From an uncultured Heliomicrobium sp. (GTDB lineage: Bacteria; Acidobacteriota; Blastocatellia; RBC074): a DNA stretch of 39,564 bases. Shown piece after piece: positions 4,682 to 32,612 of this stretch; positions within the stretch are counted from its first letter, which is position 1; each line of letters begins with the position of its first letter. Below the pieces are notes generated by a model. That model was not told the DNA's origin and made no database searches. It saw nothing but the letters and a program-made list of their open reading frames with translations. The stretch is from the NCBI GenBank assembly GCA_964603695.1, contig CAZRXE010001330.1, forward strand, positions 1 to 39,564. Reading direction: 5' to 3'. Position numbers and translations under genes: made by a program.

Positions 4682-4719
4682 CCCATTATTTCGCCCTTCA
4701 ATCGGCAAAGCTTCGAACA

Positions 4720-15878: not shown

Positions 15879-18509
15879 CTATTCGTGCCGGAGCGCTACG
15901 AGCGGGTCTGTTTTGGCGGCACGGCGCGCGGGGAGCCAGCAGGCGAAGCACGCTGTCGCGGCCAATACGAAAGTGACGAGCAGAAATGTCAGCGGGTCAG
16001 TCGCGCCAATCCCAAAAAGGACTTTTGATAGGGCACGTGACAGGAGAAGCGCGCCGATTAACCCAATCGCTACGCCCATCTTAATCAGGCACAGGCCCTG
16101 CTTTACGATCAGGGCGTATACGTCGCGCGTCTGTGCGCCCAACGCCAGCCGGATGCCGATTTCATGAGTACGTTGCGAAACGGCGAAGGACAGCAGCGCG
16201 TACAATCCAACCGCCGCCATCAACAATGCGCCCAAGCCAAAGATGCTCAACAGCCCGGTGATGATGCGCCGGGCGGCGAGACGTTCGCGGATGATTTCAT
16301 GCACCGGTTTGACTTCAGCTAATGGCAGGCTTGGGTCAAGCTCAGCCAATTCTTTGCGAATGGCACTGACGAGTGCAGGGAAGTTTTCCTGACCTGATGA
16401 AGTGAGACGCCCACGCACCAGCAGCAGGACGTTAGATCGCGGGTGTTGTGTGATGGGCAGGTAAATGCCCGGTGGTTCCGGTTCGTTGCCGCGGCTGTCG
16501 AGTACGTTTCCGACAATGCCGACGATTTCGGCGGGCGGCTGATCGTCAACGCGCAATCTTTGACCGATGACCGTGCCGCCGGGAAAGAAACGCCGCGCAA
16601 AGGCTTCGTTCACCAAAACTACGGGAACTTTGCCGTTGTCACGCTCGGAGAAAATTCGCCCGGCGCGTAGCGGGATACCCGCTGCGGCAAAATACCCTGG
16701 CGTAACGAAATCTCCTGGGATCATCGGCTGTGAACGAATTGGCACAGGCGCTTGTCCGACAACCTGAATCGGCGCGCGCGGAGAAACTGACCATCCACCG
16801 GGCGCTTTGCCGCTGAAACCTGCGCCCGAAATGCCGGGCAATGCTGCCAGCCGTCGTTCGAGTTCCTGATAAAAGTTGATGCGCTGTTCCGCCGCCGAAT
16901 ACCGCTCGTTCGGCAGAACGATGGAGGCAGTAATCGCATTATCAGGTTCGAACCCCAGATTGGTGTTGAGCAGTTTGACAAAGCTCTGCATCACCAGTCC
17001 AGCACCAGTGAGCAGCACCAGTGACAACGCGATTTCGGCAATGACCAAACGATCGCGCAATCGGTCGCTCACCAGGCTGCCCATTCCTTTGCCGCTTTCT
17101 TTCAGCGTTTCTGCCAGGGTTTCGATAAAGCTGGCGCGCGTGGCTTGCAGCGCAGGCAACAGTCCGAACAGGACGCCCGTCAACAACGACAACAGCAACG
17201 TGAAACCCAGCGCCCAGTTGTTGATTCCGATGTTTTCCCAACCTGGAATGGAACGGGCGGCATCCTCCGGCATGCTTTGCCTGAGCGCCGTCACGCCGAA
17301 CCGCGCCAACCACAATCCGAACGCGCCGCCCAGCAATGCCAGCATCACACTTTCCGTCAGCAACTGCCTGATGATGCGTGTCTGGCTTGCACCCAACGCC
17401 TGCCGCATTGCCAGTTCCTTTTGCCGCGCCGCTCCCCGCACCAACAGCAAACCCGCGACATTCGCACAAGCGATCAACAACACAAACAAAACTGCGATCA
17501 GCAAAAACGGCAGGTACGTTTGCACCGCGCGCGTGTAATTCGAACTCAGGTCGCCGACGATAATGCCTACGTTTTCATACGCGGCGGGATAAAAAGCTTT
17601 CGCGCGCCGCTGGAGAACCTGGAGTTCCGCCGAACCTTCTACATCCGTAACTCCCGGCTTCAACAGGGCGATCACGTTGTACATATGCATTTCCCGATCC
17701 TGCCGCCGTTCAACCGGGAAAACATACGGCGTCCACAGCGCGACCGTATTGTCGGGAAAGTTGAAACTCATCGGCATCACCCCGATCACCGTATAAGCTT
17801 TGTTACTGAGTGTGATCGTCTGGCCGATCACGTTTGGATCTGCGGCGAAGCGACGCTGCCAGAAACTGTGTTTGAGTATGACAACTTGTTCATGTCCCGC
17901 CATATCTTCGCCCGGTTGGAAGCTGCGTCCCAACAGCGGCTGCACGCCCAACGCGGCAAAATAGTTGGCTGAAACGTTAAACGCATTCACCTGTTCCGGC
18001 TGCTCGCCCCCCTGCAATTCGTAGTTCACGCTGTTGGCCGTGGCGAATTGCTCGAACAAGCGGCTTTGCTCACGCCAATCCTGCAACGTGCCGGGCGTCA
18101 CGCCGGTGCGTCCGACTCCTAAAACGCTTTCGTTGATCATCACCAACCGGTCTTGATGCGGCAACGCAAAGGGATGGAACATCACAGCTTCCAACGCGCT
18201 GAAAATCGTCGTATTCGCCCCAATGCCAAACCCCAACATGAGAATGACCACCAGCGTCGAAGTCTTGTGCTTGAACATCAGGCGGATGCCATAGCGAATG
18301 TCCTGAAGTAAATATTCCAACCAACCCCAGCCCCACATTTCGCGCGTGACTTCTTTGACCAATCCGACATTGCCGAATTCGCGCAAGGCATTCGCGCGCG
18401 CTTCGTCCGGCGTCTCGCCACGTGCGATGCGGTCGCGGATGGCTTCGTCGAGGTGGTGGCGGATTTCGGCGTCGAGGTCTTCGTCTTTGCGGTGTCGCCA
18501 GAATTTCAT
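15879..18509 (-). CDS. ADOP-family (acidobacterial duplicated orphan permease) MacB/FtsX-like permease
   Basis: 876 aa. It has the characteristic N-terminus [61 protein letters not shown] and two FtsX-type membrane modules (...VLLIACANVAGLLLVRGAARQKELAMRQALGAS... and ...SQRTHEIGIRLALGAQ...). Confidence 0.9.
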   Translation of the reverse strand: MKFWRHRKDEDLDAEIRHHLDEAIRDRIARGETPDEARANALREFGNVGLVKEVTREMWGWGWLEYLLQDIRYGIRLMFKHKTSTLVVILMLGFGIGANTTIFSALEAVMFHPFALPHQDRLVMINESVLGVGRTGVTPGTLQDWREQSRLFEQFATANSVNYELQGGEQPEQVNAFNVSANYFAALGVQPLLGRSFQPGEDMAGHEQVVILKHSFWQRRFAADPNVIGQTITLSNKAYTVIGVMPMSFNFPDNTVALWTPYVFPVERRQDREMHMYNVIALLKPGVTDVEGSAELQVLQRRAKAFYPAAYENVGIIVGDLSSNYTRAVQTYLPFLLIAVLFVLLIACANVAGLLLVRGAARQKELAMRQALGASQTRIIRQLLTESVMLALLGGAFGLWLARFGVTALRQSMPEDAARSIPGWENIGINNWALGFTLLLSLLTGVLFGLLPALQATRASFIETLAETLKESGKGMGSLVSDRLRDRLVIAEIALSLVLLTGAGLVMQSFVKLLNTNLGFEPDNAITASIVLPNERYSAAEQRINFYQELERRLAALPGISGAGFSGKAPGGWSVSPRAPIQVVGQAPVPIRSQPMIPGDFVTPGYFAAAGIPLRAGRIFSERDNGKVPVVLVNEAFARRFFPGGTVIGQRLRVDDQPPAEIVGIVGNVLDSRGNEPEPPGIYLPITQHPRSNVLLLVRGRLTSSGQENFPALVSAIRKELAELDPSLPLAEVKPVHEIIRERLAARRIITGLLSIFGLGALLMAAVGLYALLSFAVSQRTHEIGIRLALGAQTRDVYALIVKQGLCLIKMGVAIGLIGALLLSRALSKVLFGIGATDPLTFLLVTFVLAATACFACWLPARRAAKTDPLVALRHE

Positions 18510-18966: not shown

Positions 18967-19220
18967 GAGGCGACAAAAAAGCCCGGGCTGTCAAAATTGT
19001 GAAGGCCCGCGCGAAATGAGCGCGAGTGAAGATGCGATTGCGGAAGCAGAGCGTATCGGTAGTAGAAAGGCGCGCGAGAATTTTTCAAGTCGCTGGCAAA
19101 AGCCACGAAAAAAGCAACTTTCGAGCGCCCTTCAAGACCTTTTCGGCGGGTGCTAGTATGTTGGCCAACGCTTTGTTTCCCGGCAGGAAAGACAGTACTA
19201 CTGACACGACAAGGAGAATA

Positions 19221-20459
19221 ATGATGACGATGAAGTTCGTGAGAGTCGCGCTGCTTCTCACATTGGCGGCGTCGGCTGTTTGGGCCCAAACCAATGTGGG
19301 CGGGCAGGAAGCCGAAGCCACACTGCCCTTTCAGTTGACCACGACCGCCACGTTTGGGTTGCCTTGGCGGATTGCGTTCCTTCCAGATGGGCGCATGTTG
19401 GTGACCGAAAAGATTGGGCCTATTTGGCTGGTATCGGCACAGGGTGAAAAGATCGCGCCTTTAGGCAATACGCCTCCTGTTTATTGGCAGAACCAGAACG
19501 GTATGCTGGGGGTTTTCGTCTCGCCCCATTTCGCAACTGATGAAAGCATTTACATTACCTATATCGAACCGGGTGATTACGGCGGCGGCCAGGTGTTGGC
19601 ACGCGCCAAGCTGGATTTCAGGCGGAATCGGTTGCTGGATTTCACGGTGCTATGGCGTCAGATGCCCAAAGGCAAAGGCGGTCAGGCCGGCGGGCAGGTT
19701 GTTTTCGCGCCCGATGGACAGTCGCTGTATATGACAGTGGGAGACCGCCAGCGCATGACTCCGGCCCAAGACCCGGATCAGCCGGTTGGCAAAATTTTGC
19801 GGCTCACGTTGGATGGCAAGCCTTTTCCGGGTAATCCCAATTTCGGCAAAACCGGCGCTGCCACCATTTCGCTGATTGATCCGCCACAGGACACCGAAGT
19901 CGCCAAGACAGCGAAGGTGGTGAGTACCTACACCTTTCCCAATCCCAATCTGACGCCTGCGGAAACCTGGGCCAGCGGCTTCCGCGCGCCGTATGGGTTG
20001 GCGCTTTCACCCGCCGGTGAATTATGGGAGCTTGAACATGGCCCCGCTGGCGGCGACGAGTTGAACCTGATCGAGAAGGGCAAAAATTATGGCTGGCCGC
20101 TGGTTTCTTACGGGAAGAACTACAACGGAACGCCGATCCCCAGTCACGACACAAGGACGGATTTCGTGAAGCCGGTGCTCTATTGGGTGCCGGTGATCGC
20201 GCCGGGCAACCTGATGTTTTACAAGGGGACCAAAATGTTTCCGCAATGGGATGGCAATGGCTTTATCAGCGGATTGGCGACGATGTCGCTCACGCGCGTC
20301 ATCTTTGACGGTAAAGGCGGAGCCAAGACGGCAGAGCGTTGGAAGATAGGCAAACGGATTCGCGATGTGGAACAAGCGCCCGACGGTTCGCTGTGGTTGC
20401 TGGAAGACGCCAATCCCGGCGCTCTGATCCATGTGACTCCAAAACCGACTCCAAAGTAA
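19221..20459 (+). CDS. PQQ-dependent sugar (glucose/sorbosone) dehydrogenase family beta-propeller protein, secreted
   Basis: The start is placed at ATG 19221 (AAGGAG at 19211-19216), giving the signal peptide MMTMKFVRVALLLTLAASAVWAQ. Motifs are LPWRIAFLPDGRMLVTEKIGPIWLV and GGDELNLIEKGKNYGWP. Confidence 0.85.
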   Translation: MMTMKFVRVALLLTLAASAVWAQTNVGGQEAEATLPFQLTTTATFGLPWRIAFLPDGRMLVTEKIGPIWLVSAQGEKIAPLGNTPPVYWQNQNGMLGVFVSPHFATDESIYITYIEPGDYGGGQVLARAKLDFRRNRLLDFTVLWRQMPKGKGGQAGGQVVFAPDGQSLYMTVGDRQRMTPAQDPDQPVGKILRLTLDGKPFPGNPNFGKTGAATISLIDPPQDTEVAKTAKVVSTYTFPNPNLTPAETWASGFRAPYGLALSPAGELWELEHGPAGGDELNLIEKGKNYGWPLVSYGKNYNGTPIPSHDTRTDFVKPVLYWVPVIAPGNLMFYKGTKMFPQWDGNGFISGLATMSLTRVIFDGKGGAKTAERWKIGKRIRDVEQAPDGSLWLLEDANPGALIHVTPKPTPK

Positions 20460-20595: not shown

Positions 20596-22524
20596 CTATT
20601 TTCTCAACTTCAGTTCGCGTACCAGCCGATGCACGTGGTTGGGGTGAATGCCGAGGATTTTTCCGGCTTCCGTGTAATTGCCTTCGGCTTGTTCGATGGC
20701 GTCGAGAACGAATTGCTTTTTGGCTTCTTTGACGGCGTCGTAAAGCGTCAATCGCGTCGGCGATTCGACTTCCAGAATGGTTTCCGGCAAATCTTCAGGG
20801 CGGATTAAATCGCTTGATCCCAGCACCAGCGCGCGTTCGATGACGTTTTCCAGTTCCCGCACATTGCCCGGCCAGTCGTAATTTTTGAGCAGCGATTGCG
20901 CTTCGTCGGAGATGCCGCGCACGCGCCGTTTGCATTGTTCGCGGTGTTTTTTCAGGAAGTGATTGGCCAACAGCGGAATGTCCTGGCGGCGGTCTCTGAG
21001 AGAAGGCATTTTGATGGAAACGACATTGAGGCGATAGAAAAGATCCTGGCGAAAGTTGCCGGCGACTATCTCCGCTTCCAGGTCACGATTCGTGGCGGCA
21101 ATCACGCGAAGATTGGCTTTCAGTGTGCGGGTGCCGCCAACGCGCTCGTATTCCCTTTCCTGCAAAACGCGCAGCAGTTTGGTTTGCAGCAGCGGCGACA
21201 TTTCGCCCATTTCATCCAGAAAGATGGTTCCGCCGTCGGCCATTTCCAGCTTGCCTTTTTTTTGCGCGACGGCTCCGGTGAACGCGCCTTTTTCGTGGCC
21301 GAAAAGCTCGCTTTCCAGCAGCGTTTCGGTCAGCGCGGCGCAGTTGATGGCGACAAAGGCATTGTCCTTGCGCGTGCTGTTGCGGTGAATGGCGCGGGCG
21401 GCCAACTCCTTGCCCGTGCCGCTTTCGCCACGAATCAGCACGGTGAAATCGCTGGGCGCGACTTTGGCGATCATCTGATAGATGTCCTGCATTTTGGGGC
21501 TTTCGCCAATCAGGTCGTGACTTAGATTCAATTCGTCCTGCAATCGCCGATTCTCGTTTTCAAGCCATTCGACGTAGCGCGCGTTTTGCAAAGGCGTCGC
21601 TGCGACTCCGGCAATGGCCGTCACCAACTGTAGATGGTCGCGATCAAAATAGATTAGTGGGTTGCTGGTCGTCAGGTAAATGACGCCCAGCATTTTGTCC
21701 ACAACGATGATCGGAACGGCCAGCAGCGATTGAACCCTGGCAACCATCAAACTGGCCACGGCCTGAAACGCGCCGCTGTCCTGAACGGCATTGCTCAAAA
21801 CTGCGGTACCGCTTCGCAACACTTGCTGAACAACGGTCTGGCTGATGGGAACAGGCTCTTCCCTGCCTGCGCGTTGATCCCAGATGCAGACGGGAATGAA
21901 TTCTTCCTGGCCCTCTCCGGCCAGCAAAATCGCGCCGCGTTCGGCTGGAACCACTGCGCAGATCAAATCCAGCAAGCGTCGCCACAAGGAAGGCACATCG
22001 CAGATCGGCGCAATCTCCGTGCTGATCTTCAACAGCAGGTTCAAATCCGCCACCAATCGCGCCGATGGCGGCATTAAGGCCAGCGTTTCCGCAGGCTGCA
22101 AGTAAAGCGCGTCGGCGCTTCGCAAACTGAGCGTTGCGCGCGCGCCCAGATCGGAGTCATCCAGTTTGATCAGATCCGGCGTCGCCTCATCGCCAAGCAA
22201 AAACAGAAATTCGCATTCGCCGATTTCAATTCGGTCTCCATCCGCAAGCTTTCGCTCCCCGACCGGCAGGCCGTTGACGAAGGTTCCATTGGCGCTGCCC
22301 AAATCGCTGAGCGTGATTTGCTCGGCGTCTGTTGTCATACGGCAATGCCAACGCGACACGGTCGGAGAATCAAGACAAATATGGTTGGCAGGCTCGCGGC
22401 CAATCGTGAATTCCGTCAACTCGCCAAGCGCGAAGGTCTTGCCTTGCAGCGGGCCGGCAATGGCAATTAGCTTAGGCAGCTTGGGCAATTTGGGGAGTTT
22501 GGGAAGATTGAAGGGCATCATCAT
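20596..22524 (-). CDS. Sigma54-dependent transcriptional activator with N-terminal FHA and GAF domains
   Basis: [25 protein letters not shown]...[14 protein letters not shown]+: GESGTGKE and GAFTGA. The C-terminal Fis-type HTH is [21 protein letters not shown]. The start is ambiguous: GTG 22545, or ATG 22524/22521/22518 behind GAGGAA. Confidence 0.9.
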
Positions 22525-22684
22525 TTCCTCGTTTATCACAGCCACTCAGCCAAAGTATAGAGCCGGGCAGGGTCTATTCATTCTCAGCCACATAGGCCAC
22601 CGAGTGCCTGGAGAAAATCTAACATCTCGGTGCGCTCTACAGTCCCCGTGGCTAAATCCGGAAAAAGCCCAGTCACTACCAAAG

Positions 22685-23125: not shown

Positions 23126-23140
23126 TGGCACAAGGGTTGA
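23126..23140 (+). promoter_or_regulatory. Weak candidate sigma54 (-24/-12) promoter
   Basis: TGGCAC-AAGGG-TTGA has correct GG-to-G spacing, but the -12 element reads TTGA rather than TTGC. It is about 140 nt upstream of the ATG at 23281 and downstream of the repeat array. Confidence 0.25.
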
Positions 23141-23280
23141 GATAGACAATGCCGTCAGTAAACAACGGGTAGCGAAACACTCAGTCGAGAGTCCTTAGCT
23201 ATCCACCCAAACAAAGACCGGCGGACGTTGGAGCCGGCGGACTTTGAAAGATGAACTGTCAGACAATCGAGAGGAAAATC

Positions 23281-23811
23281 ATGACTAAACAGCAAATGAC
23301 TAGCGTTTTTGGAAAGAAGAAAGTGGCAGTGTTCGCGTTGATGTTCGCAGCCTTTTCACTGTTGGTGCCGTTTTCGCTGATTGGCAACGCATCCGCCGCC
23401 GCGAATTCATCGCTGTCGGCACTGGCGGAGCAAGCCAACTTCCGCGTGTTGCTCAGCAGCGCGATTCACCTGGGCGACGACGGCGGCGTCGGTGACGATT
23501 ACGAAATCACCTTCAGCGCCCCGGAAGTAGACGCTACCAAAACCGCGATTCTGATGATTCGGACGCGGGACGTGGATTTCAGCAGAAACGTCATCACCAT
23601 TAACGGCGTGGCGGTCAGCAACGCGCTGGTTCCGCACAGTGACGACAACGACGGCGAGTACTTCACGGAAATCGGGATCGTTGCGGCCAACACGCTGAGA
23701 GCGACCAACAACAAGCTCTACATCGGCGCGCGCAATGAAAGCGGCACCATCGGCGGCAACCTGGACGACTTTGACGTGGACAACGTGGTGCTCGTCTACA
23801 AACAACCCTAA
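23281..23811 (+). CDS. Small secreted hypothetical protein
   Basis: The start is placed at MTKQQMTSVFGKKKVAVFALMFAAFSLLVPFSLIGNASA (signal peptide). The mature part is Asp-rich, and I recognise no family. Confidence 0.55.
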   Translation: MTKQQMTSVFGKKKVAVFALMFAAFSLLVPFSLIGNASAAANSSLSALAEQANFRVLLSSAIHLGDDGGVGDDYEITFSAPEVDATKTAILMIRTRDVDFSRNVITINGVAVSNALVPHSDDNDGEYFTEIGIVAANTLRATNNKLYIGARNESGTIGGNLDDFDVDNVVLVYKQP

Positions 23812-23924: not shown

Positions 23925-24458
23925 ATGCAACGAGTGAAATTGATGGTGATGACGATTTGCCTGTTGAGCGCGATTGCGGTGACGGGCTGGGCGCAAACCG
24001 CCGGTTCCGCCGCGCAGGCGACCAATAATCCCGCAGGGCAAACGCCTGAACTCGCCGCTCAAGTGCGGCAATTGATGGTCGAAGTGCGAAACCTGAAAGT
24101 CGAATTGCTCAAACTCCGGCTTGAAGCGCAAGCGGCCAAACTGGCGCAAATGGAACGCGAGTTTGCGGAAGCCCAAAAAGGCGGACAGCGTATGAGTGCG
24201 CAGGAACAACAGTTCGCACAGGAAGTGGCCGAGTTCGACGAACGCCTGGGACAAACGGATTTGGACTCTTCCGAACGCGCGCAGTTGGAAGTCTCGAAAG
24301 CGAAGATGACGCAGACCGGGACACAGAAGTTTTTCGCGCAGCGGCAACAACTGCTGGAAAAACAAAATGAAGCCGGTCAACGCCTGGAACGCGAGCGGGA
24401 ACGTTGGCAGGAGCTGGTCAAGCAGGCTGTGAAATTAGGCGTCAAGGTTGACGAATAA
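23925..24458 (+). CDS. Secreted coiled-coil hypothetical protein
   Basis: GGAGAG lies 3 nt upstream of the ATG. The signal peptide is MQRVKLMVMTICLLSAIAVTGWAQ. The rest is rich in E/Q/K/L/A with a heptad-like pattern (LKVELLKLRLEAQAAKLAQMEREFAEAQK). Confidence 0.6.
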   Translation: MQRVKLMVMTICLLSAIAVTGWAQTAGSAAQATNNPAGQTPELAAQVRQLMVEVRNLKVELLKLRLEAQAAKLAQMEREFAEAQKGGQRMSAQEQQFAQEVAEFDERLGQTDLDSSERAQLEVSKAKMTQTGTQKFFAQRQQLLEKQNEAGQRLERERERWQELVKQAVKLGVKVDE

Positions 24459-24505: not shown

Positions 24506-25456
24506 CTATTGATGAATCAATTGAGTCTTCATCACCAGTAGATTCAGCGTAGCCGAAACATTCATTTGAACAATCGTCGGTTCCGGTTCTTGAGGTTTGA
24601 GTTTGAAGCCTTTGGCAATCGCTACGTCCTCAGTTGCGGCCTGTAATTGTCCAAGCGTTTTGCTCTGACTGACGATCTTGGGCTGATTGGCCTGGGCGAT
24701 GACCGGATCGTATTGCGGCTGAGTCGGTTTCCAGGCGCAATCGTCTCCGAAAGCCAAACAGTATTTGACCAGACTGTCGCCGGTCGGAACGCCGACGAGC
24801 GGTGTCTTTGAAACGACAATCAGAAAGTTCTCTACCGCCGGTTTTTCGTCGAACACGAACCAGGGCGTTCTGGAATGGCGCGAGGGAACTTCGCAGGGCA
24901 CGTGCGCTGTGATTTTGTTGTCGCCTTCGTGCAATCGCGGATCGGGAAAAATCATCATCGGTTCGGTCTCGTTCTCGCGGTAAAAGATATACAGATAGCC
25001 GTCAATATTCGGTTCGATGACGAAGCGCACCAGGTCGTCTTTGCGAAAGGTCTTGGCGGGATTGACGCGAACGGCTTCGCCGCGTTCGTTGCGCTGATAA
25101 AGCGTGAAGCCCAGACCGATACGCACAGGCGCAGGCGCAGTTTCAGGCGCGGGCGAATTGCTTGTTTCAACAACGGGCGGACGACGCACTGGTTTGCTGT
25201 TGCGATTGCCGGCTGGCACGGGCGGCTTGGATGGTTGGCTTTGCGCCGTTTGTTTGCCCGCGCTTGAAGCGGCGGGTTTCTTGTCGCGGTTTTTGATGAA
25301 TGCTCCGCGCGCTTCTTCATCCGAAGACATAGGTGAAGACAGAGGCGTTTCCTGGCTCGGCGTTGATTGGCCGGCGCGCGCGACAATCGAAACTGTCAGC
25401 GTCAAACAGGCCAGCGCGAGCAAGTGTGATGGTCGAATCAAGGCTCTGAAATTCAT
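24506..25456 (-). CDS. Secreted DUF4384-domain protein
   Basis: The signal peptide is MNFRALIRPSHLLALACLTLTVSIVARA, followed by a Pro/Ser-rich linker. The DUF4384-like core is DDLVRFVIEPNIDGYLYIFYRENETEPMMIFPDPR. GGAGGG precedes the ATG, and the gene starts 12 nt after the kinase stop. Confidence 0.7.
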   Translation of the reverse strand: MNFRALIRPSHLLALACLTLTVSIVARAGQSTPSQETPLSSPMSSDEEARGAFIKNRDKKPAASSAGKQTAQSQPSKPPVPAGNRNSKPVRRPPVVETSNSPAPETAPAPVRIGLGFTLYQRNERGEAVRVNPAKTFRKDDLVRFVIEPNIDGYLYIFYRENETEPMMIFPDPRLHEGDNKITAHVPCEVPSRHSRTPWFVFDEKPAVENFLIVVSKTPLVGVPTGDSLVKYCLAFGDDCAWKPTQPQYDPVIAQANQPKIVSQSKTLGQLQAATEDVAIAKGFKLKPQEPEPTIVQMNVSATLNLLVMKTQLIHQ

Positions 25457-25468
25457 AAGTTCCCTCCG

Positions 25469-27295
25469 TTATTGCTGCTTGATCGGCAGATCGAAGATCA
25501 ATGGTTTGTCGGCGACGGTTGTTTCGCCGGCGATGTTGACGCGAGTCAGGCGCTGCACGGCATCGGGCTGAATGTGCGGTGCGGGCAGGTTTTGTTGCCG
25601 ACGCCAGTCATTGAATTGATGCTGCTCGGTCGCCGTCAATTCATGCAGTGCCGGAGTAGCCAAAAATTCCGGGCTGAGCAGTGGCCTGGGAGAAAGAATG
25701 ACTGTAAACGCCATCATCTTTTCATTGCTGGTAAGCCCCAGACATTTGCCCTCGCCGGACGGAAAACTGTAATCGCTTCCCGCCTCAACGAAATTGGTGT
25801 TGACGCCTGTTTCAGCGTCCGGCTGCGCGGTCAGAAAAGTCATCGGAATGTTTTTTTCGTTCTGCGCCAGAATGTAAAGGTAGCCGCTCTGCCGAGGCAG
25901 GAAATGAAATTTGAAAGATTGCGCGGCGCTGAGGGATTCGTCTCCAATCGCGCGCGCGAGTGTTTGGCAGTCGTCCGAACTGATTTCCAGATAATACGAC
26001 ATCGGCTCCGCGCCGTTGCCGGACGCCGGCGTCTCGTTCGGAACCGCTTGGGCAGCGCCTGTCTGGTTGCTCAGCCTGGCCCGAAGCCTTCCCAGATAAA
26101 GCGCCGAAAAACCGGCCAGCACGGCCAGAATCAACATCCCGGCAATCAAATATGTTTTCGTGCGTTGATTGGTGAGCGCTGCGGGCGGCGCTTGCGCTTC
26201 AAATGTTCGCGCCAGTACGGCTCGCCGAGGCGCTGCGGCGGTTGGTTCCAGAGGCTTGTTGTCTGTTGCCGCATTTTGATTGGGATTCGTATCCGAAACA
26301 GTTGCGCCTTCCGAAGAAGTCGTCATCGAATCCAAACTGCTCCCTTGCCCAGCGCCATTCAGCGACTGCACGAAAAGATGGAAGGCTTCGAGCGCGCTTG
26401 GCGGGCGGTGTTGTGGTTCCTGATCGAGCATTTTGAACAGCAGTTGCTCTATGGCCTCCGGCGTTTCGGGACGGCGTTGGCGAATGGCGGGCGGCGGCGT
26501 GGTTCGTTGCAGTCGTATCAACTCCGGCAAGTTCTGGGCTGTGAACGGCAGGCGACCGCAGAGCATTTGATAGAGCAACACGCCGAGCGAATAAATGTCC
26601 GAACGGCTGTCGAGCGAACTGCCCACGCAGAATTGTTCAGGGCTGGCGTAATGAGGCGTGCCCAGCAGCAACGAAGCCGAAGACGCGCCCGGCGTATTGG
26701 ATTCGGCAACGACTTTGGCGATGCCGAAATCAACCACTTTGACCCGCTCGCGTCCGTCAGGCCCGCGAACGAGCATGATGTTCGCCGGTTTGAGATCGCG
26801 ATGAATGATGCGCCGCGCGTGCGCGTGATCGAGCGCCGCCGCCACCTGCTCGAAGATTTCCGTAATCCGCTCGAAGCTGAGTTGGCGATTCTTTTCGATT
26901 TCCTTTTCCAGCGTGTGGCCTTCCAGCCACTCCATCACTATGTACGCAAGATTGTCCGGCGTGCGGCCTGCATCCTTGATGTCCACTATGTTTTCGTGAC
27001 TGAGTTGCCCGGCGATTTCCGCTTCACGCTGGAACAGTTCCAGCAAACGTTCATTGCCGAGCGCCAGATTGGGTTGCAGGATTTTGACGGCGACGTGGCG
27101 ATTGATCGTCAAATGATAGGCGCTATAAACCGCGCCCATTCCGCCCAATCCAATCAACGCATCCACACGATATTTTTCCAGCAACGTTCGCCCGACCAAA
27201 TGATACGGGTCTGGAAAAGAAAGCAGCCGTCCTTCAGTCGGGCAAAAACGCTCGCTGTCCGGGTATGGAGCTTTGCAGGCGGGACAGTATTTCAT
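25469..27295 (-). CDS. Hanks-type Ser/Thr protein kinase with N-terminal zinc ribbon, one TM segment and a C-terminal DUF4384-like domain
   Basis: The zinc ribbon is MKYCPACKAPYPDSERFCPTEG. Kinase motifs are VAVKIL, HRDLKPANIML, DFGIAK and GTPHYASPEQ. The TM segment is YLIAGMLILAVLAGFSALYLG. The C-terminal part has FHFLPRQSGYLYILAQNEKNIPMTFL. Confidence 0.9.
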   Translation of the reverse strand: MKYCPACKAPYPDSERFCPTEGRLLSFPDPYHLVGRTLLEKYRVDALIGLGGMGAVYSAYHLTINRHVAVKILQPNLALGNERLLELFQREAEIAGQLSHENIVDIKDAGRTPDNLAYIVMEWLEGHTLEKEIEKNRQLSFERITEIFEQVAAALDHAHARRIIHRDLKPANIMLVRGPDGRERVKVVDFGIAKVVAESNTPGASSASLLLGTPHYASPEQFCVGSSLDSRSDIYSLGVLLYQMLCGRLPFTAQNLPELIRLQRTTPPPAIRQRRPETPEAIEQLLFKMLDQEPQHRPPSALEAFHLFVQSLNGAGQGSSLDSMTTSSEGATVSDTNPNQNAATDNKPLEPTAAAPRRAVLARTFEAQAPPAALTNQRTKTYLIAGMLILAVLAGFSALYLGRLRARLSNQTGAAQAVPNETPASGNGAEPMSYYLEISSDDCQTLARAIGDESLSAAQSFKFHFLPRQSGYLYILAQNEKNIPMTFLTAQPDAETGVNTNFVEAGSDYSFPSGEGKCLGLTSNEKMMAFTVILSPRPLLSPEFLATPALHELTATEQHQFNDWRRQQNLPAPHIQPDAVQRLTRVNIAGETTVADKPLIFDLPIKQQ

Positions 27296-27334
27296 TGGAA
27301 TAGTCGGTTAATCGCGAAGTGACGCGAGGCGGTT

Positions 27335-27429
27335 CATTTTCCATTTTCCATTTTCCATTTGGCATTTGAGATTTGCGGACGACGAATTCCTCAATGACAA
27401 CTGACAAATCTCAAATGACAAATGGAAAA
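27335..27429. promoter_or_regulatory. Heptamer tandem repeat plus 25-bp inverted repeat between the caspase and kinase genes
   Basis: CATTTTC occurs 3 times perfectly (27335-27355), with a degenerate fourth copy. The inverted repeat is TTTTCCATTTGGCATTTGAGATTTG (27351-27375) against 27405-27429, with 1 mismatch and a 29-nt loop. It begins 10 nt after the upstream gene's stop. Confidence 0.5.
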
Positions 27430-27438
27430 TAAAACTTT

Positions 27439-30400
27439 TCACCGCACAGCAATCACCAGTTGCCGGCTTTCGGCCTCTCGACGATAAAAAACGCGCGGGC
27501 GCTGGATTTCCCGTGTGAGTTTGACGCCTGTTGCCAGCTTGATTCCACGATTTTGAGTGTTTTTGTTTTCCTGCATGTTTTGCAATCGAGGAGCCTGCTC
27601 GGTGGCGTAATCCAGCCATTCCCTGAGCAGCACTTGTCCGTCGTGCGGTTTGTGATCTGCGCCCAGTGCCTTGATGCCGTCAACTATCAATGCCTGCGTC
27701 AAATAGCCGTGCCCGAGTCGAGAGTTTTCCCAGGCGACTTGATAACTTTGCGACGCTGTCAGGATGTTCATGCCTTTTTCGTAAGCCAGTTGAGCCAGCC
27801 CTTTGGAATTCATCGGCCCGCGACGTTTTTCCTCCGCTTCCAGCACCTGCCCCGAATAACACGCATCAATCACGAAAACCAGTTGGCCGGCGTCCACCTT
27901 TTCAAAATGCTGTTCCAAATCCAGATCGGAGATGCTGTTGGCGAGCATTTGCCGCCAGCCTGTTTGATCCAGTTCATCGCGGCGGCCTTGATAGCCCAGG
28001 TCGTGCGGAACCAGATAAAAACGCGGCGCTTCGGCCAGCCCGTGACCGGAAAAGTAAACAAGCACGGCGTCTTCGGGTTGAGCCGGCTGCAAGCGTTCCA
28101 TCTCCACAAGTGCCGGTTCTTTTGACGCTTCATTTCTCGCTAGCCGTTTCAACGCGCCCAGCAGATTGGCTTTGGTCGCCTGCTTATCGAGCAAGTTGAC
28201 GACCTCTATTTTGGCAAAGCGTTTGAGCCGCGATTGCTGCTGCTGAAGCTCTTCGCTGAAGACGATGGCGTCGGCCACTGCAAATTTCAGGTTGAATTCC
28301 GGGTTGGCGTATTGATTGACACCGACGGAGAGAATATAGAGCGTTCCGGGGCGCGCCAACTGTTCGCTGCCAGTCAGGATTAAGGTTTCATCCGCGCTTT
28401 TGACGTTGTCGCGATTGAAGGCATAAGCCGTCAGCCGATTTTCTCCGGCGACGAGCGACACTGTGTGTTGGAGTTTGACCGCGCCCGCGCGGCCTTGTAG
28501 CAAGTCTCCGCGCCAGACTTTGACCAGCGAGCCGTTGCGAAACAGCCGCACGTCGTAAACGCCGCTGCCCATCGCGTAATCGCCATCGGCTGAGGCTTCA
28601 GCGATTTCCAGATTGATCTTTGCCAGACGATTCGCCGCTTCCTGAACCGCCAGTTTGACGGCGGGCTGACGGCGGTCGCGCAAGGCAATGTTTTCAACGG
28701 CGCGCGGGCGGCTTGGCGTCATCACTTCGGCCAGCAGGTTGGGATGGAAAAACTCGTTGAAGAAAATTTCAACCGGCGCGGTGCTGAAAGTGTTGTGGCC
28801 GAATCGCCATAGAATCTGATTGAACGCCGCCGGCGAGCCGTCAAACAAACCGTCCGGCGCGACCACCAGCCAATCGGAATTGTTCGACAGGGAAACCAGC
28901 GTTGCCGCCGGTTCGCCGGTTGCGACCTCCCAAAATCTGACGCTGCCGTCTTCGCTGCCGGAGATCAGCCATTTGCCTTCGCCTGCGAAACAAAGCGCGC
29001 TTACGTCGCCTGCGTGACCTGAAAGCGCGCCCGCCGGCGTGAATTCGGCGCGAGACTTTTCCCAAAGCTTGATTTCACCCGTCGCGTCGCCTGCGGCCAG
29101 ACGTTGACCGTCAGGGCTGATGGCCAGACTATCAATGCGTCCGCGCATTCCAGCCAGCGATTGCAGTTCGCGCCCGGTTGCCGCGTCCCAGACTTTGACC
29201 AGCCGATCCGCTCCGCCCGAAACGACTGTGCGCCCGTCCGCGCTCATCGCCACGGCAAAGACGTTGCCGGTGTGCCCTGTCAGCGTTTGTGCAGGTTGGC
29301 TTGATCCGGCAGCCCACAGCCTGACAGTTTGATCCGCGCCGGCTGATGCGAATTGTTTTCCGTCCGCGCCGGCGCTGAGCGCGCGGACTTCTTTTGTATG
29401 GCCTGCCATCGCCAAAGCTTCTTTCCCAGTTTCCACTTCCCACACTCTGACCACGGAATCCACGCCGGAAGAGATCAATTGTTTTCCGCTGGAAGAGAAG
29501 AGCAGGGAATTGACGCCTTCAGGATGCGCCGTCCAGCGGCGTTGTTCGCGGACGGCGGCAATGTCCCAGAGCAGAATCATTCCGCCTTTGCTGCCGGCGG
29601 CGAGTTGCAGACTGTCTGGGCTGAACGCAACGGTGGTGATGCTGCCTGTATTGCCCGGCAGATTGGCGACCACGCGCCCGGACGCCAAATCCCAAAGTGT
29701 GACGGTCATGTCCTGATTGCCTGTCGCCAGCCAGCGACCGTCAAGACTGAGCGTGAGGCTGTAAATCGGATTGTTGTGATTTTCCAGCAGTCGCCTGCCG
29801 CCGCCATCCGTCCGCCGCAAATTGATAGTCGGCAAACCAATGCCTGCGGCAAGGCTGTCACCGTTTGGACTAAACACAGCGATTTCGTATTTTTCGATTT
29901 CGGAAGAGTTGTCGGGCAATGTCGAAAGTTCTAGGAGCGTGGCGGCGTTGAAAATTCTGATGCTTCGATCCTCCGCGCAGGTCAGCAGCTTCGCGCCGTC
30001 GCGGCTGAAGCCCACGGCCAGGACGCCGCTTAAATGTACAAGCGGTTTTTTGACGCGCTGCATTTTTGGCCAGGTCCAAAGCTGAACTTTCGCATCGTGA
30101 CCGGCGACGGCCAGCGTTTTGCCGTCCGGGCTGAACTTCAGGCTTTTGACTTCGCCAGTGTGTTCAAGCGGCTGCCGCGTCGAAGAAGCGTTTAGAAGCG
30201 ACCAAAGTCTGACTGTCTTATCCCGCGCGCCTGAAGCCAGCCAGTTGCCGTCGGGACTGAACGCCAGCGCCGTCACCAGTCCGAAATGGCCTGTGTAAGT
30301 TCGCGCTTCGCGCTGCGAGGCGACATCCCAAAGTTTGACGCTGAAATCCGCGCCCGCCGAAGCTAGCGAACGCCCGTCTGGAGAAAAGGCCAGCGCCGTG

Positions 30401-30876
30401 ACTGATTGCGCCGTGACCGATTGCATGTGCCCAGCCAACGACGCCGATTCGCGCCCCGAAGCCAATTCCCAAAATTTGATCCTGCCGTCGTTTCCGCCCG
30501 AAGCCAGCAGCCGCGCGTCAGGGCTGAAGGCGACTGCTTTGACCGCTCCGGTGTGCCCTGCCAACGTGCGCAATTCCCGCCCGGTGGCGGCTTCCCAAAT
30601 TTTGATCGTGTGATCCACGCTGCCGGTGGCGACATAACGGCCATCGGGGCTGAAAGCGATTCCTTCGGCCTTTTGGCTGTGCCCGGTTTGCAGAATCAAT
30701 TCGGGCTTTTCGGAAACAGCTTGTTGAGAAATCGCCGGCGCTTGCCGCGCAGCGTAACCGGCGAACAAAAACAGTGCGCTGAGGAAAAGGAGGCTTCGCG
30801 GCTTTTTTCCCAGCGGGCAGGATTCCCGCGCTCCCTGACTTTCTGGATAAAGTTTCGATCTCATGTAACTGCTCAT
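27439..30876 (-). CDS. N-terminal signal/anchor + 14 WD40 repeats + C-terminal caspase-like (peptidase C14) domain protein
   Basis: There are fourteen units of the GH-x-x-V-x-x-(V/L)AFSPDG...D.T(V/I)(K/R)LW type. The caspase dyad contexts are LVYFSGHGLA (His) and VFVIDACYSGQ (Cys). The hydrophobic N-terminus is PRSLLFLSALFLFAGYAA. The start is ambiguous: TTG 30927, ATG 30876 or ATG 30864. Confidence 0.9.
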   Translation of the reverse strand: MSSYMRSKLYPESQGARESCPLGKKPRSLLFLSALFLFAGYAARQAPAISQQAVSEKPELILQTGHSQKAEGIAFSPDGRYVATGSVDHTIKIWEAATGRELRTLAGHTGAVKAVAFSPDARLLASGGNDGRIKFWELASGRESASLAGHMQSVTAQSVTALAFSPDGRSLASAGADFSVKLWDVASQREARTYTGHFGLVTALAFSPDGNWLASGARDKTVRLWSLLNASSTRQPLEHTGEVKSLKFSPDGKTLAVAGHDAKVQLWTWPKMQRVKKPLVHLSGVLAVGFSRDGAKLLTCAEDRSIRIFNAATLLELSTLPDNSSEIEKYEIAVFSPNGDSLAAGIGLPTINLRRTDGGGRRLLENHNNPIYSLTLSLDGRWLATGNQDMTVTLWDLASGRVVANLPGNTGSITTVAFSPDSLQLAAGSKGGMILLWDIAAVREQRRWTAHPEGVNSLLFSSSGKQLISSGVDSVVRVWEVETGKEALAMAGHTKEVRALSAGADGKQFASAGADQTVRLWAAGSSQPAQTLTGHTGNVFAVAMSADGRTVVSGGADRLVKVWDAATGRELQSLAGMRGRIDSLAISPDGQRLAAGDATGEIKLWEKSRAEFTPAGALSGHAGDVSALCFAGEGKWLISGSEDGSVRFWEVATGEPAATLVSLSNNSDWLVVAPDGLFDGSPAAFNQILWRFGHNTFSTAPVEIFFNEFFHPNLLAEVMTPSRPRAVENIALRDRRQPAVKLAVQEAANRLAKINLEIAEASADGDYAMGSGVYDVRLFRNGSLVKVWRGDLLQGRAGAVKLQHTVSLVAGENRLTAYAFNRDNVKSADETLILTGSEQLARPGTLYILSVGVNQYANPEFNLKFAVADAIVFSEELQQQQSRLKRFAKIEVVNLLDKQATKANLLGALKRLARNEASKEPALVEMERLQPAQPEDAVLVYFSGHGLAEAPRFYLVPHDLGYQGRRDELDQTGWRQMLANSISDLDLEQHFEKVDAGQLVFVIDACYSGQVLEAEEKRRGPMNSKGLAQLAYEKGMNILTASQSYQVAWENSRLGHGYLTQALIVDGIKALGADHKPHDGQVLLREWLDYATEQAPRLQNMQENKNTQNRGIKLATGVKLTREIQRPRVFYRREAESRQLVIAVR

Positions 30877-30923
30877 GCCTCTTCGGCTCGTGGAGCCGGT
30901 TGAGTTTAGATACTGCTTGAACG

Positions 30924-31669
30924 TCAACCAGCAAAAGTAAGATTTGGGTCAAACGAGCGATTATTTTTCAAGACACCAAAAGCTTGATGCAGCAATTTTC
31001 GCATAGCGGCGCAGACGATTGGCATCTTGGTCTTCCCGTTTTTCTTCAATCGCTCCGCGAATTCTTTGATAATTGGGTTATGGCGCGTAGCGACGACTGC
31101 GGGAAAATAGAGGGATTTGCGAATTCTACCGTTCCCCAGTTTGGACAAATTCGTGTGCTTCAAGCAGGTGCCGGATTCCTGCTTGCGCGGAGTGACGCCG
31201 GCAGTGGCGGCGAATTGGCGAGCATCATCGTAGCGGGCGAAATCCACCTCGCTGAGCAAAAATTGGGCGGTCTTTTCTCCAATGCCTGGTATGGAGAGTA
31301 ACAAATCATGTTGCTCTTTAAGTTTCGGATGTTGATCCGGATGTTGATCCGGATGTTGATTGATTTCTTGTCGCATTTTGTCAATTTCTTCTGTCAAAGC
31401 CAGCGTCTCCGAGAGAGTTTCAATTCCGCACGTCAAAGCCTGCAATTGCCTGATTTCAGGGGCTGGCGGAGTCCAGGGCGATGGGTTTTCCTTCTCACAA
31501 AATTCCGCGATCAACCGTGCATCGGCTTTGTCCGTTTTGTTGCGTTGTAAATTGGAAGCGGCATATCCCTTGATGCGCAACGGATTGACCAGCGAAACAG
31601 TCTGCCCTTGCTCGTGTAAAAAAGAGCGACCGCATCGCCGTAAGTTCCATTTACATATTTTTCAAACAT
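30924..31669 (-). pseudogene. IS110-family transposase relic (N-terminally degraded, frameshifted)
   Basis: ORF 30924..31580 has KTDKADARLIAEF and LLSIPGIGEKTAQFLLSEV (Transposase_20-type). Upstream, NGTYGDAVALF...HEQGQTVSLVNPLRIKGYA is recovered only by a frame change at the A6 run 31618-31623. More remnant with in-frame stops may extend to about 31790. The first roughly 60 or more aa of the DEDD domain are missing. Confidence 0.75.
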
Positions 31670-31870
31670 CAAGCGACCGAAACGGTCTCTTTTGCGTAAG
31701 TCCTAATCAATAAACTCCTGAAGAGAGATTGTTCCGTAGGTCAAACTTGTCAATCCAGACTCGAGGTCATCAGATACTGTCCGACTTGTCAGGAACTGGA
31801 AAAGGGGAAGAGGTCTTAATCTAAATCACAGACTCGTGGTCTGAGGCAGGCCCGGACTAATCTTTCCCCA

Positions 31871-32225: not shown

Positions 32226-32612
32226 ATGATGCTGATGATCGTGGATGACAATTCGCGGATGCGGCGATTGCTGCGCTGCATCTTCGCTTCCGTGGCCGCT
32301 GAGGTTTGCGAATGCGCAAACGGCGGCGAGGCGGTGGAGATGTATCGCGCGCGGCGACCCGATTGGGTGCTGCTGGATTTTGAAATGGACGGTCTGGATC
32401 TGACCCGCCGCTTGCTGACCGAATTCCCCGCCGCGCGCGTGGCGATCCTGGCCGTTTACGATGACGACCGGTTACGCGCCGCCGCATATGACGCAGGCGC
32501 GAGCAGCTTTGCCTCGAAAGAAGACTTGAGTGAACTGCCCGCCCTGCTGTGTTGCGGGACCGAATCACCCCTCAAAACATATTTCATTACTCAAAAGGAG
32601 TTCCCCCAATGA
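32226..32612 (+). CDS. Stand-alone response-regulator receiver domain (CheY-like)
   Basis: 128 aa with MMLMIVDDNSRMRR (acidic pocket), WVLLDFEMDGLDL (phospho-acceptor Asp context) and ASSFASKEDL (conserved Lys). There is no output domain. Its stop overlaps the next start (ATGA at 32609-32612). Confidence 0.8.
   Translation: MMLMIVDDNSRMRRLLRCIFASVAAEVCECANGGEAVEMYRARRPDWVLLDFEMDGLDLTRRLLTEFPAARVAILAVYDDDRLRAAAYDAGASSFASKEDLSELPALLCCGTESPLKTYFITQKEFPQ

Follow-up and report, generated by a model that had tools for sequence, protein, structure and literature searches.

The window analysed here is the complete 39.6-kb metagenome contig CAZRXE010001330.1 (39,564 nucleotides, nt), and the subject of this report is a group of three genes within it which we propose, with the reservations given below, to be linked in function. 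Gene 1 encodes a WD40-repeat protein ending in a caspase-like domain (the WD40-caspase), gene 2 a Hanks-type Ser/Thr kinase, and gene 3 a secreted protein with a DUF4384 domain. As the initial annotation of this DNA had described, the three open reading frames (ORFs) are co-directional; they lie on the minus strand at 27439..30876 (or 27439..30927), 25469..27295 and 24506..25456. Their features are:

27439..30876, minus strand: WD40-caspase gene, 1,145 amino acids (aa) from the ATG at 30876 (ORF; Pfam)
30733..30807, minus strand: signal-peptide-like or signal-anchor-like segment of gene 1, residues 24-48, KKPRS-LLFLSALFLFAGYAA-RQAPA (sequence; position kept in relatives)
28927..30714, minus strand: fourteen WD40 blades of gene 1, residues 55-650 (Pfam WD40 and blade list)
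28663..28926, minus strand: conserved linker of gene 1, residues 651-738, DWLVVxPDGLFDGSPxAxNQILWRF...DRRQP (invariant alignment columns)
28369..28662, minus strand: FN3/immunoglobulin (Ig)-like beta-sandwich of gene 1, residues 739-836 (AlphaFold2, AF2, with predicted local distance difference test, pLDDT, of 82-93)
27667..28344, minus strand: C14 caspase-like domain of gene 1, residues 845-1070 (Pfam Peptidase_C14)
27442..27507, minus strand: invariant C-terminal tail of gene 1, QRPRVFYRRExExxxL(V/I)xAxx (alignment columns Q477, P479, R480, F482, Y483, R484, E488)
25469..27295, minus strand: Hanks Ser/Thr kinase, 608 aa (Pkinase PF00069, E=2e-52; catalytic domain 26402-27172)
25631..26005, minus strand: predicted extracytoplasmic DUF4384 domain of the kinase, residues 431-555 (hhalign against the gene-3 family)
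24506..25456, minus strand: secreted DUF4384 protein, 316 aa (Pfam, alignment, AF2 model)

The window sequence was seen in bioreactor and activated-sludge runs, and its best homologues and all related loci belong to the Blastocatellia/Pyrinomonadaceae (Acidobacteriota). The comparison covered approximately 170 related loci. In a forward scan, an alignment of the secreted DUF4384 protein was searched against one genome per species, giving 80 loci, nearly all from Blastocatellia/Pyrinomonadaceae and all from metagenome-assembled genomes (MAGs). In a reverse scan, the caspase domain was searched against metagenome contigs, giving 80 loci. The WD40-caspase family is large, with 901 search matches and at least 541 loci in the metagenome scan.

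Besides the ATG at 30876, the WD40-caspase gene has alternative starts at an ATG at 30864 and at a TTG at 30927, the latter giving a protein of 1,162 aa; the orthologues in L003 and L004 are approximately 70% identical to the window protein. The WD40 family PF00400 matched the window protein in 13 stretches (Pfam, E=8e-127), and 13 canonical blades and one degenerate blade were counted, arranged as 6+1 and 7 (7+7), which suffice for two 7-bladed propellers. The approximately 190 aa between the WD40 blades and the caspase domain consist of a conserved linker of about 88 aa, for which AF2 predicted no fold (pLDDT <50), and the FN3-like sandwich, which Foldseek matched to the FN3-like modules of CbhA and to SoxZ with probability 1.0. 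The C-terminal 498 aa matched Peptidase_C14 (PF00656) with E=8.2e-11 and 42.5 bits against a cut-off of 21.4; the PADLOC 'caspase' model gave 40 bits, and NCBIfam caspase_w_EACC1 gave 51.6 against a cut-off of 140. The dyad residues are His945 (YFSGHG, 28042-28044) and Cys1006 (IDACYSG, 27859-27861), which are invariant in 25 homologues and align with the SGHG and DSCHSG motifs of Yca1 (4f6o). A search of PDB sequences with the whole C-terminal alignment was swamped by the last WD40 blade and was repeated with the caspase domain alone, for which the best match to a solved structure was Yca1 at E=1.2. The core of the AF2 model of this domain (fragment residues 197-356, pLDDT 74-95) was matched by Foldseek to the MALT1 paracaspase 6h4a with probability 1.0 over 169 columns. 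Conserved Asp residues are found in AVADA and two residues before Cys1006, positions that we take to line the S1 pocket in metacaspase structures. A family-specific invariant segment, EEKRRGPMNSKGLAQLAYEKG, follows the catalytic Cys directly, and the most conserved segment after this Cys has an AF2 pLDDT below 50. These results agree with the initial annotation in its length for the protein (1,140-1,160 aa), its fourteen blades and its intact His/Cys dyad, which proved to be correctly aligned; the middle region that it had put at about 170 aa is present, but measures approximately 190 aa as linker plus sandwich.

Two invariant elements of the caspase family are rich in Arg, one after the Cys (EEKRRGPM..., 27790-27858, minus strand) and one in the tail (QRPRVFYRRE, 27442-27507, minus strand). 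For an Arg-specific protease, these could be autoprocessing sites or autoinhibitory pseudo-substrate sites.

The location of the WD40-caspase was assessed from its N-terminus. Residues 24-48 (KKPRSLLFLSALFLFAGYAARQAPA) comprise an n-region of positive charge and, behind it, a hydrophobic core of 15 residues, and such a hydrophobic segment precedes the conserved start of blade 1, (S/G)E(K/R)PELILQTGH, in the window, L003, L004, L007 and L011. L003 and L004 carry textbook Sec signals (MKLIHQ...ARALCFIAATAAFA/QTQ), while L007 and L011 have longer n-regions followed by LALCLFFAAAIFA/QQ and IALAIILALIPAFSETAFA/RR, respectively. The segment is also found in paralogues (P0109/L001, the split gene in L002, L096, L106, L110, L113, L128 and L154), so that it is present in all 13 family members with a visible N-terminus, five orthologues and eight paralogues, as the hydrophobic signal or anchor of the initial annotation had led us to expect. 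N-termini were judged on loci with readable upstream DNA, as the 120 best homologues are nearly all N-terminally truncated gene calls, and the export call rests on hydrophobicity, charge and conservation. Since the segment keeps its position and physicochemistry while its sequence drifts, it behaves like a signal peptide, and whether it is a cleaved signal or an uncleaved anchor, the propellers and the protease would be outside. The whole body of the WD40-caspase is thus predicted to lie outside the cytoplasmic membrane.

Many bacterial caspase-WD40 proteins, those associated with NACHT/STAND, are cytoplasmic (PMC3501461), and an in-frame TTG is present at ELILQ, just past the hydrophobic segment. 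If the true start were there, the WD40-caspase could be a cytoplasmic conflict or abortive-infection effector with the kinase as its intracellular partner. We consider this very improbable: starts inside or after the hydrophobic core would discard a feature whose position is kept in every member with a visible N-terminus, the remaining proteins of the module are exported or have outward-facing domains, and no NTPase, effector-associated domain or defence-system neighbour was found at the locus. The kinase does match the generic PD-T4-6 and MAD6 models, but the PADLOC matches are at domain level only. A known anti-phage defence system was rejected as a candidate on the basis of PADLOC-DB 2.0, which returned only generic matches to kinase (PD-T4-6, MAD6), WD40 and caspase models and none to the DUF4384 protein, to the small ORFs or to the CHAT protein described below. 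The initial annotation had spoken of a signalling or conflict module; these generic matches leave nothing for the conflict part, and the signalling part is retained here as an interpretation. It had also called an exported caspase unusual, which holds for the reversed domain order but not for the N-terminal helix, since a lone N-terminal helix, in all probability a signal peptide, had been reported for 46 prokaryotic metacaspases in 2012 (PMC3501461).

The gene-2 kinase has legible VAVK, HRDLKPAN, DFG and SPE motifs, by which it is judged catalytically competent. Its N-terminus carries a CxxC...CP motif resembling a zinc ribbon, and a Ser/Thr-rich juxtamembrane linker leads to one transmembrane (TM) helix at approximately residues 382-402 (about 26081-26149), a single helix being present in 33/33 full-length orthologues. 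As the kinase domain must meet ATP in the cytoplasm, the domain beyond the helix faces outward. This ectodomain of 207 aa scored 20.5 bits with Pfam DUF4384 (PF14326), below the cut-off of 27. When 33 kinase ectodomains were aligned with the gene-3 family using hhalign, a probability of 94.4% and E=9e-8 were obtained over 116 columns, and precomputed PF14326 matches exist for several kinase orthologues. Homology of the kinase ectodomain to the gene-3 DUF4384 is therefore well supported at the level of profiles, while the formal Pfam threshold is missed for the window sequence; to this extent a DUF4384-like domain outside the membrane after one TM helix, as first annotated, stands. The PknB/Stk1 PASTA kinase model NF033483, whose cut-off is 450, reached 294 bits and matched residues 35-420 only; no PASTA domain is present in the gene-2 kinase, which has the DUF4384 ectodomain instead.

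Gene 3 starts exactly 12 nt past the kinase stop, as previously noted, and its product has a signal peptide and a DUF4384 match of 43.0 bits against the cut-off of 27 (Pfam, residues 136-219). The signal peptide is followed by the motif EEARGAFIKNR (helix 45-58), a disordered linker rich in Lys, Arg and Pro (59-112), an Ig-like sandwich (113-219) that was modelled confidently by AF2, and a C-terminal alpha/beta subdomain with two nearly invariant Cys. Signals were found in 21/21 secreted DUF4384 homologues, which have the two conserved Cys in common, consistent with a disulfide in an oxidising compartment. A motif of the form EExxRGAFLxxR is near-universal just after the signal peptide of these proteins. 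It consists of an acidic patch and then R-G-(A/S)-F-(L/I/M)-x-(S/T)-R, a few residues past the signal peptide, and of 86 ORFs for secreted DUF4384 proteins, 75 have RG[AS]F exactly and the others have near-variants. A Foldseek search of the DUF4384 model against the PDB gave no significant match (best E=0.08), and the fold can be named just as an Ig-like sandwich.

The order of the genes was compared with that in related genomes. In approximately nine contigs of one Blastocatellia subclade the order is a giant Kelch protein, the WD40-caspase, the kinase and the DUF4384 protein, so that the triad recurs in related genomes. The order is complete in L003, L004/L005 and L007 and partial in L006 and L008 (L008/L091); further triad contigs are L011 from the genome collection and L090 and L094 from the metagenome collection, where L101 has a partial triad. 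The upstream Kelch protein, whose length ranges from 1,766 to over 2,600 aa, starts with a signal peptide and ends in TIGR03437, and in L003, L004, L007 and L011 its stop codon overlaps the caspase start (ATGA). The gap from caspase stop to kinase start is 143 nt in the window. A scan of the operon for sigma70 promoters and terminators found nothing above shuffled expectation. In the window, the following element stands at the caspase start:

30924..31580, minus strand: truncated IS110-family transposase remnant (Pfam Transposase_20 and partial DEDD_Tnp_IS110)

The junction of this remnant with the caspase N-terminus is spanned by single contigs in three independent runs, and is therefore not an assembly artefact. 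Of the IS110 element, just the last part of the DEDD domain and Transposase_20 are retained.

Taken with this gene order, the adjacency could be coincidental, the WD40-caspase working with the Kelch giant in a secreted degradative or adhesive apparatus that happens to stand beside an unrelated kinase-DUF4384 sensing pair. The ATGA overlap with the Kelch gene, the 143-nt gap before the kinase in the window, the confinement of the strict triad to one subclade and the different genes that follow most caspase paralogues (see below) all fit such an arrangement. The caspase-kinase gap, however, shrinks to just 9-44 nt in L004, L011 and L007, DUF4384-caspase fusions occur elsewhere (PMC8283722), and the wider pattern of neighbours speaks for a link. 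We therefore consider coincidence quite unlikely.

This wider pattern came from the two scans. Among the 80 forward-scan loci, approximately 75 have a kinase with a homologous TM helix and DUF4384 C-terminus immediately upstream on the same strand, and in 65 of the 80 the gene immediately downstream of the DUF4384 gene encodes a TPR-CHAT protein of approximately 950 aa. CHAT is a clan-CD protease family related to the caspases. The related TPR-CHAT proteins match CHAT (PF12770) with E=1e-67 to 1e-73, and a signal-peptide-like start was present in 49/49 full-length copies inspected. The loci with the WD40-C14 protease are the loci without CHAT. That C14 and CHAT might be one protease on different scaffolds was ruled out by profile comparison: an hhalign alignment of the window C14 domain with 40 neighbouring CHAT domains gave a probability of 1% and E=0.049, and only the His...Cys stretch aligned. 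Since the two families are not detectably related at the profile level, the replacement of one by the other is a non-orthologous displacement, and displacement of a protease whose gene context is conserved argues strongly, on comparative grounds, for a functional link, being hard to explain by inheritance alone. An unrelated clan-CD protease beside the same kinase-DUF4384 pair in 65/80 genomes, and its absence where the WD40-C14 protease is found, count against coincidence.

In the reverse scan, the orthologous kinase and DUF4384 pair followed the closest caspases only. At 13 loci, a WD40-caspase paralogue is followed 9-122 nt downstream by a secreted DUF4384 protein of approximately 300 aa (Pfam 26-28 bits), with no kinase, so that the caspase family pairs directly with DUF4384 outside the triad as well; this group has looser versions of the N-terminal motif (TRGLKVKK, ARRLWDGAFLKKR). 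Downstream of the WD40-caspase paralogues at 14 loci lies a xanthine-dehydrogenase-like gene. Three arrangements can thus be distinguished, Kelch/WD40-C14/kinase/DUF4384, kinase/DUF4384/TPR-CHAT and WD40-C14/DUF4384, and what appears constant across them, as judged from the predicted proteins, is a secreted DUF4384 protein beside an exported clan-CD protease with a repeat scaffold.

Several variants were observed among these loci. In L026 (6393-7454), L031 (3010-4071) and L046 (6228-7286), a single-propeller WD40 protein of approximately 353 aa with an N-terminal TM anchor is encoded directly upstream of the DUF4384 kinase, and L018 has a WD40-containing protein of 1,110 aa after the CHAT gene; propellers therefore recur in the module even with the CHAT protease. 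A second, tandem kinase gene is present upstream in the CHAT-type loci L021, L025, L032, L037, L047, L053 and L056, and in L037, L047 and L056 this second kinase has a weak DUF4384-like C-terminus. Loci L059, L085 and L088 have a typical Blastocatellia module in MAGs labelled Heliomicrobium or Clostridia, which probably reflects mis-binning or mislabelling, not true spread beyond Acidobacteriota.

From these results we suggest, as an interpretation that we hold to be somewhat on the probable side, that the kinase is controlled by a clan-CD protease located outside the cytoplasm, which acts either on the secreted DUF4384 protein or together with it. Repeats (WD40 here, TPR elsewhere) would serve as the scaffold that captures the secreted DUF4384 protein, with the EExxRGAFLxxR motif at the mature N-terminus or the basic disordered linker as the candidate docking site. 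The protease would then cleave the DUF4384 protein after Arg or Lys, at the N-terminal motif or in the basic linker, and cleavage, or its absence, would alter the contact of soluble DUF4384 with the DUF4384 ectodomain of the kinase, by which the kinase would be switched. A broader and more specific form of this proposal, which is possible but which we hold only tentatively, is a pathway across the whole Blastocatellia lineage, in which either TPR-CHAT or WD40-C14 processes DUF4384 at EExxRGAFLxxR and the product controls the kinase through homotypic DUF4384 contacts.

Without any change in location or linkage, the DUF4384 protein could also be read not as a substrate but as an inhibitor, a chaperone or an adaptor of the exported clan-CD protease, or as a soluble co-receptor offering a ligand to the kinase. 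The true substrates of the protease would then be elsewhere (envelope proteins, the Kelch giant or foreign proteins), and the kinase's own DUF4384 domain would let it detect that same ligand or state of the envelope. The weak structural neighbours of DUF4384 are ligand- or lipid-binding sandwiches (RhoGDI, PDE6D, UNC119 and the Wzt C-terminal domain, E >= 0.08), which would suit such a role, although no Foldseek match was significant; the Arg-containing motif and basic disordered linker resemble a processing or docking site more than an inhibitor fold. The 13 kinase-less caspase-DUF4384 pairs imply that the pair can work without kinase signalling, and the ATGA overlap in the orthologues couples the Kelch giant translationally to the protease. 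The data do not discriminate a substrate from a partner in this respect, and we regard a non-substrate partner as somewhat unlikely.

In the window and its closest relatives, a continuation of the proposed pathway may lie in the neighbouring genes downstream of the triad:

20596..22545, minus strand: FHA-GAF-sigma54 enhancer-binding protein (Pfam; synteny in L003 and L004/L090, 79% identity)
23126..23141, plus strand: sigma-54-like element TGGCAC-N5-TTGA (TGGCACAAGGGTTGA), 110 nt upstream of small ORF 2 (invariant in L003 and L004)
23251..23811, plus strand: small secreted protein 2, 186 aa, starting with a signal peptide and matching no Pfam family (kept in L003 and L004)
23925..24458, plus strand: small secreted coiled-coil protein 1, 177 aa, likewise starting with a signal peptide (kept in L003 and L004)

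The arrangement in the window, with two small secreted proteins on the opposite strand and then the FHA-GAF-sigma54 activator, is kept in L003 and L004/L090. Enhancer-binding proteins of the FHA type in Myxococcus are a precedent for signalling from a kinase to an FHA domain. The activator here probably reads phospho-Thr produced by the kinase; in the proposed scheme, phospho-Thr on the juxtamembrane linker of the kinase would be bound by the activator, which would then drive a sigma54-type promoter before the two small secreted proteins. A sigma54 promoter at 23126 is plausible. Near-matches to sigma54 sites across the window are at the level of chance (26 against 26.6 expected), and the site at 23126 was retained for its conservation and position; conserved CTACCAAA repeats are found approximately 120 nt further upstream. 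From the sigma54-like element to the start codon, the leader of small ORF 2 (23126-23250) shows high conservation. In L003 and L004 a GC-rich inverted repeat (AAAGGCCGGCCGGC...GCCGGCCTTT) lies in this leader, immediately ahead of the ribosome-binding site; the version in the window is altered.

A number of observations weigh against the interpretation of the three genes as such a pathway. The strict triad, as said, is confined to one subclade, and approximately 51 of the 65 WD40-caspase paralogue loci with room for further genes have neither a kinase nor DUF4384 downstream. In the window itself the Kelch gene has been replaced by the IS110 remnant abutting the caspase start. As to export, the first ~50 residues of the window protein cannot be aligned with those of its orthologues, and the window, L007 and L011 have long n-regions (24-60 aa), so that an uncleaved anchor is possible there. 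The AF2 model of the caspase domain is moderate overall (pLDDT 66) and poor beyond the catalytic Cys, and a cleavage preference for Arg or Lys is suggested by the conserved Asp residues through analogy with metacaspases; Arg/Lys at P1 is the specificity of meta-, ortho- and paracaspases. The enhancer-binding protein adjoins the module only in the nearest relatives (L003, L004/L090), L008 and L011 having a PBP1 gene instead; the statement in the initial annotation that the module feeds into this protein thus fits these neighbours and does not extend beyond them. The -12 element of the candidate promoter is TTGA, not the consensus TTGC (TGGCAC-N5-TTGC). The runs with the window sequence, all from bioreactor and activated-sludge metagenomes, are DNA only, with no RNA run among them.

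The proteins of the locus were compared with known systems. The literature already contains orthocaspases and metacaspases joined to WD40 repeats, as well as fusions of DUF4384 to caspases and to kinases (PMC3501461, PMC7475262, PMC8283722, bioRxiv 10.1101/2025.01.12.632604), and the statement in the initial annotation that DUF4384 occurs fused to caspase and kinase domains matches the last three of these sources. The WD40-caspase shares with prokaryotic C14 caspase homologues a Peptidase_C14 domain with its His/Cys dyad, WD40 as their commonest accessory domain (PMC3501461, PMC8283722) and DUF4384 as a known accessory. It differs from them in that the order is reversed (signal, fourteen WD40 blades, FN3-like sandwich and C-terminal caspase), the whole protein is predicted to be exported, DUF4384 is present in trans and not fused, and the protease domain is very divergent and carries the invariant EEKRRGPMNSKGLAQLAYEKG and the QRPRVFYRRE tail.

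By analogy, the nearest functional counterpart would be Csx29-Csx30 of the type III-E Craspase, in which a repeat scaffold carries a clan-CD protease that changes transcription by cutting its dedicated partner protein. Most relatives of the window locus likewise use a TPR-CHAT protease, and some Csx30 proteins, the substrates of the TPR-CHAT protease Csx29, have a C-terminal DUF4384 domain (bioRxiv 10.1101/2022.08.17.504292). In contrast to Csx29-Csx30, the proteases here have signal peptides, the output is a Hanks kinase and not an anti-sigma factor, and the window protease is of the C14-WD40 type; no Cas7-11, CRISPR array or crRNA, Csx30, Csx31 or RpoE is encoded in the window or the related loci. 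The kinase resembles the PknB/Stk1 PASTA kinases in having a cytoplasmic kinase domain, a Ser/Thr-rich juxtamembrane linker, a single TM helix and an outside sensor, and, as in PASTA kinase/FHA signalling, a neighbouring FHA-domain protein is a plausible reader of phospho-Thr; unlike in those kinases the sensor is DUF4384, and the locus also encodes an exported protease and a soluble paralogue of this sensor domain. In concept, the proposal is also similar to DegS-RseA, CtpB/SpoIVB-SpoIVFA and Prc-type systems, where a periplasmic protease cleaves a dedicated regulator and the signal crosses the membrane. Those are serine proteases acting through anti-sigma factors or intramembrane cascades, whereas a caspase-like cysteine protease and a Ser/Thr kinase are found here, and no homology is implied.

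No description of a module of an exported clan-CD protease, a secreted DUF4384 protein and a DUF4384 kinase was found in the literature, and neither PADLOC nor NCBIfam offers a model specific to it. As kinds of protein, caspase homologues and sensor Hanks kinases are already known; it is their combination that is new, and we do not regard this as a categorically new system. To our knowledge, bacterial caspase homologues have been discussed almost entirely as intracellular death or anti-phage effectors, and very few have a known substrate. The predicted site of the present system is entirely outside the cytoplasmic membrane, and comparative genomics names one candidate partner or substrate, the secreted DUF4384 protein with its Arg-containing N-terminal motif. 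The output would be defined as well, being a Hanks kinase and, in the closest relatives, the FHA-sigma54 activator. The exchange of TPR-CHAT for WD40-C14 in the same context amounts to a natural swap experiment, indicating that it is the protease function, not a particular family, that matters. If the proposal is true, DUF4384 would gain a first function, that of a substrate and receptor domain cognate to clan-CD proteases, its fusion to caspases, kinases and Csx30 would be explained, and caspase-like proteases would act as periplasmic signal transducers, not as intracellular effectors of death or defence. The recurrence of DUF4384 with caspases, kinases and Csx30 thereby becomes a directly testable hypothesis, and culturable Blastocatellia may carry the CHAT-type version.

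Upstream of the triad, a degraded Kelch orthologue was sought in the window and rejected, as tblastn found nothing and the repeat region at 33-39.5 kb belongs to a different, divergent gene. This gene (32609-39564, plus strand) is divergent from the triad, runs off the end of the window and encodes a giant secreted protein built of repeats, at least 2,318 aa long and starting with a signal peptide (MKNHRQTKVLAISLSLILGIGTLSF). It consists of propeller-like repeats of approximately 56 aa (NTWSALGTGGGNGVNN..LYVGGSFT), with tandem units of 168 nt at 33058-33534, followed by Ig-like regions, and is not a Kelch orthologue. An ORF for a CheY-like receiver (32226-32612) lies just upstream of it. Between these genes and the IS110 remnant, a 56-bp stretch (31650-31705) stood out in four runs by 2-4x higher depth and by contigs that branch there. 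This marks it as a multi-copy repeat, so that linkage in the window beyond this point rests on the path taken by the assembler.

On the side of the enhancer-binding protein, the flanking genes encode a MacB-like/FtsX permease of 876 aa (15879-18509, minus strand) and a glucose/sorbosone dehydrogenase-like protein (19026-20459, plus strand), neither of which is conserved in L003 or L004. Further away, a cluster of the type that makes ribosomally synthesised and post-translationally modified peptides occupies 2435-11168 on the plus strand. It encodes a YcaO cyclodehydratase with an N-terminal winged helix-turn-helix (2435-4681), a ThcOx-like/nitroreductase oxidase (4720-6243), a class-II LanM-like synthetase (DUF4135, LANC_like; 6243-9419), a 183-aa ORF and an S8 subtilase (9975-11168), and is possibly a hybrid azol(in)e-lanthipeptide pathway.

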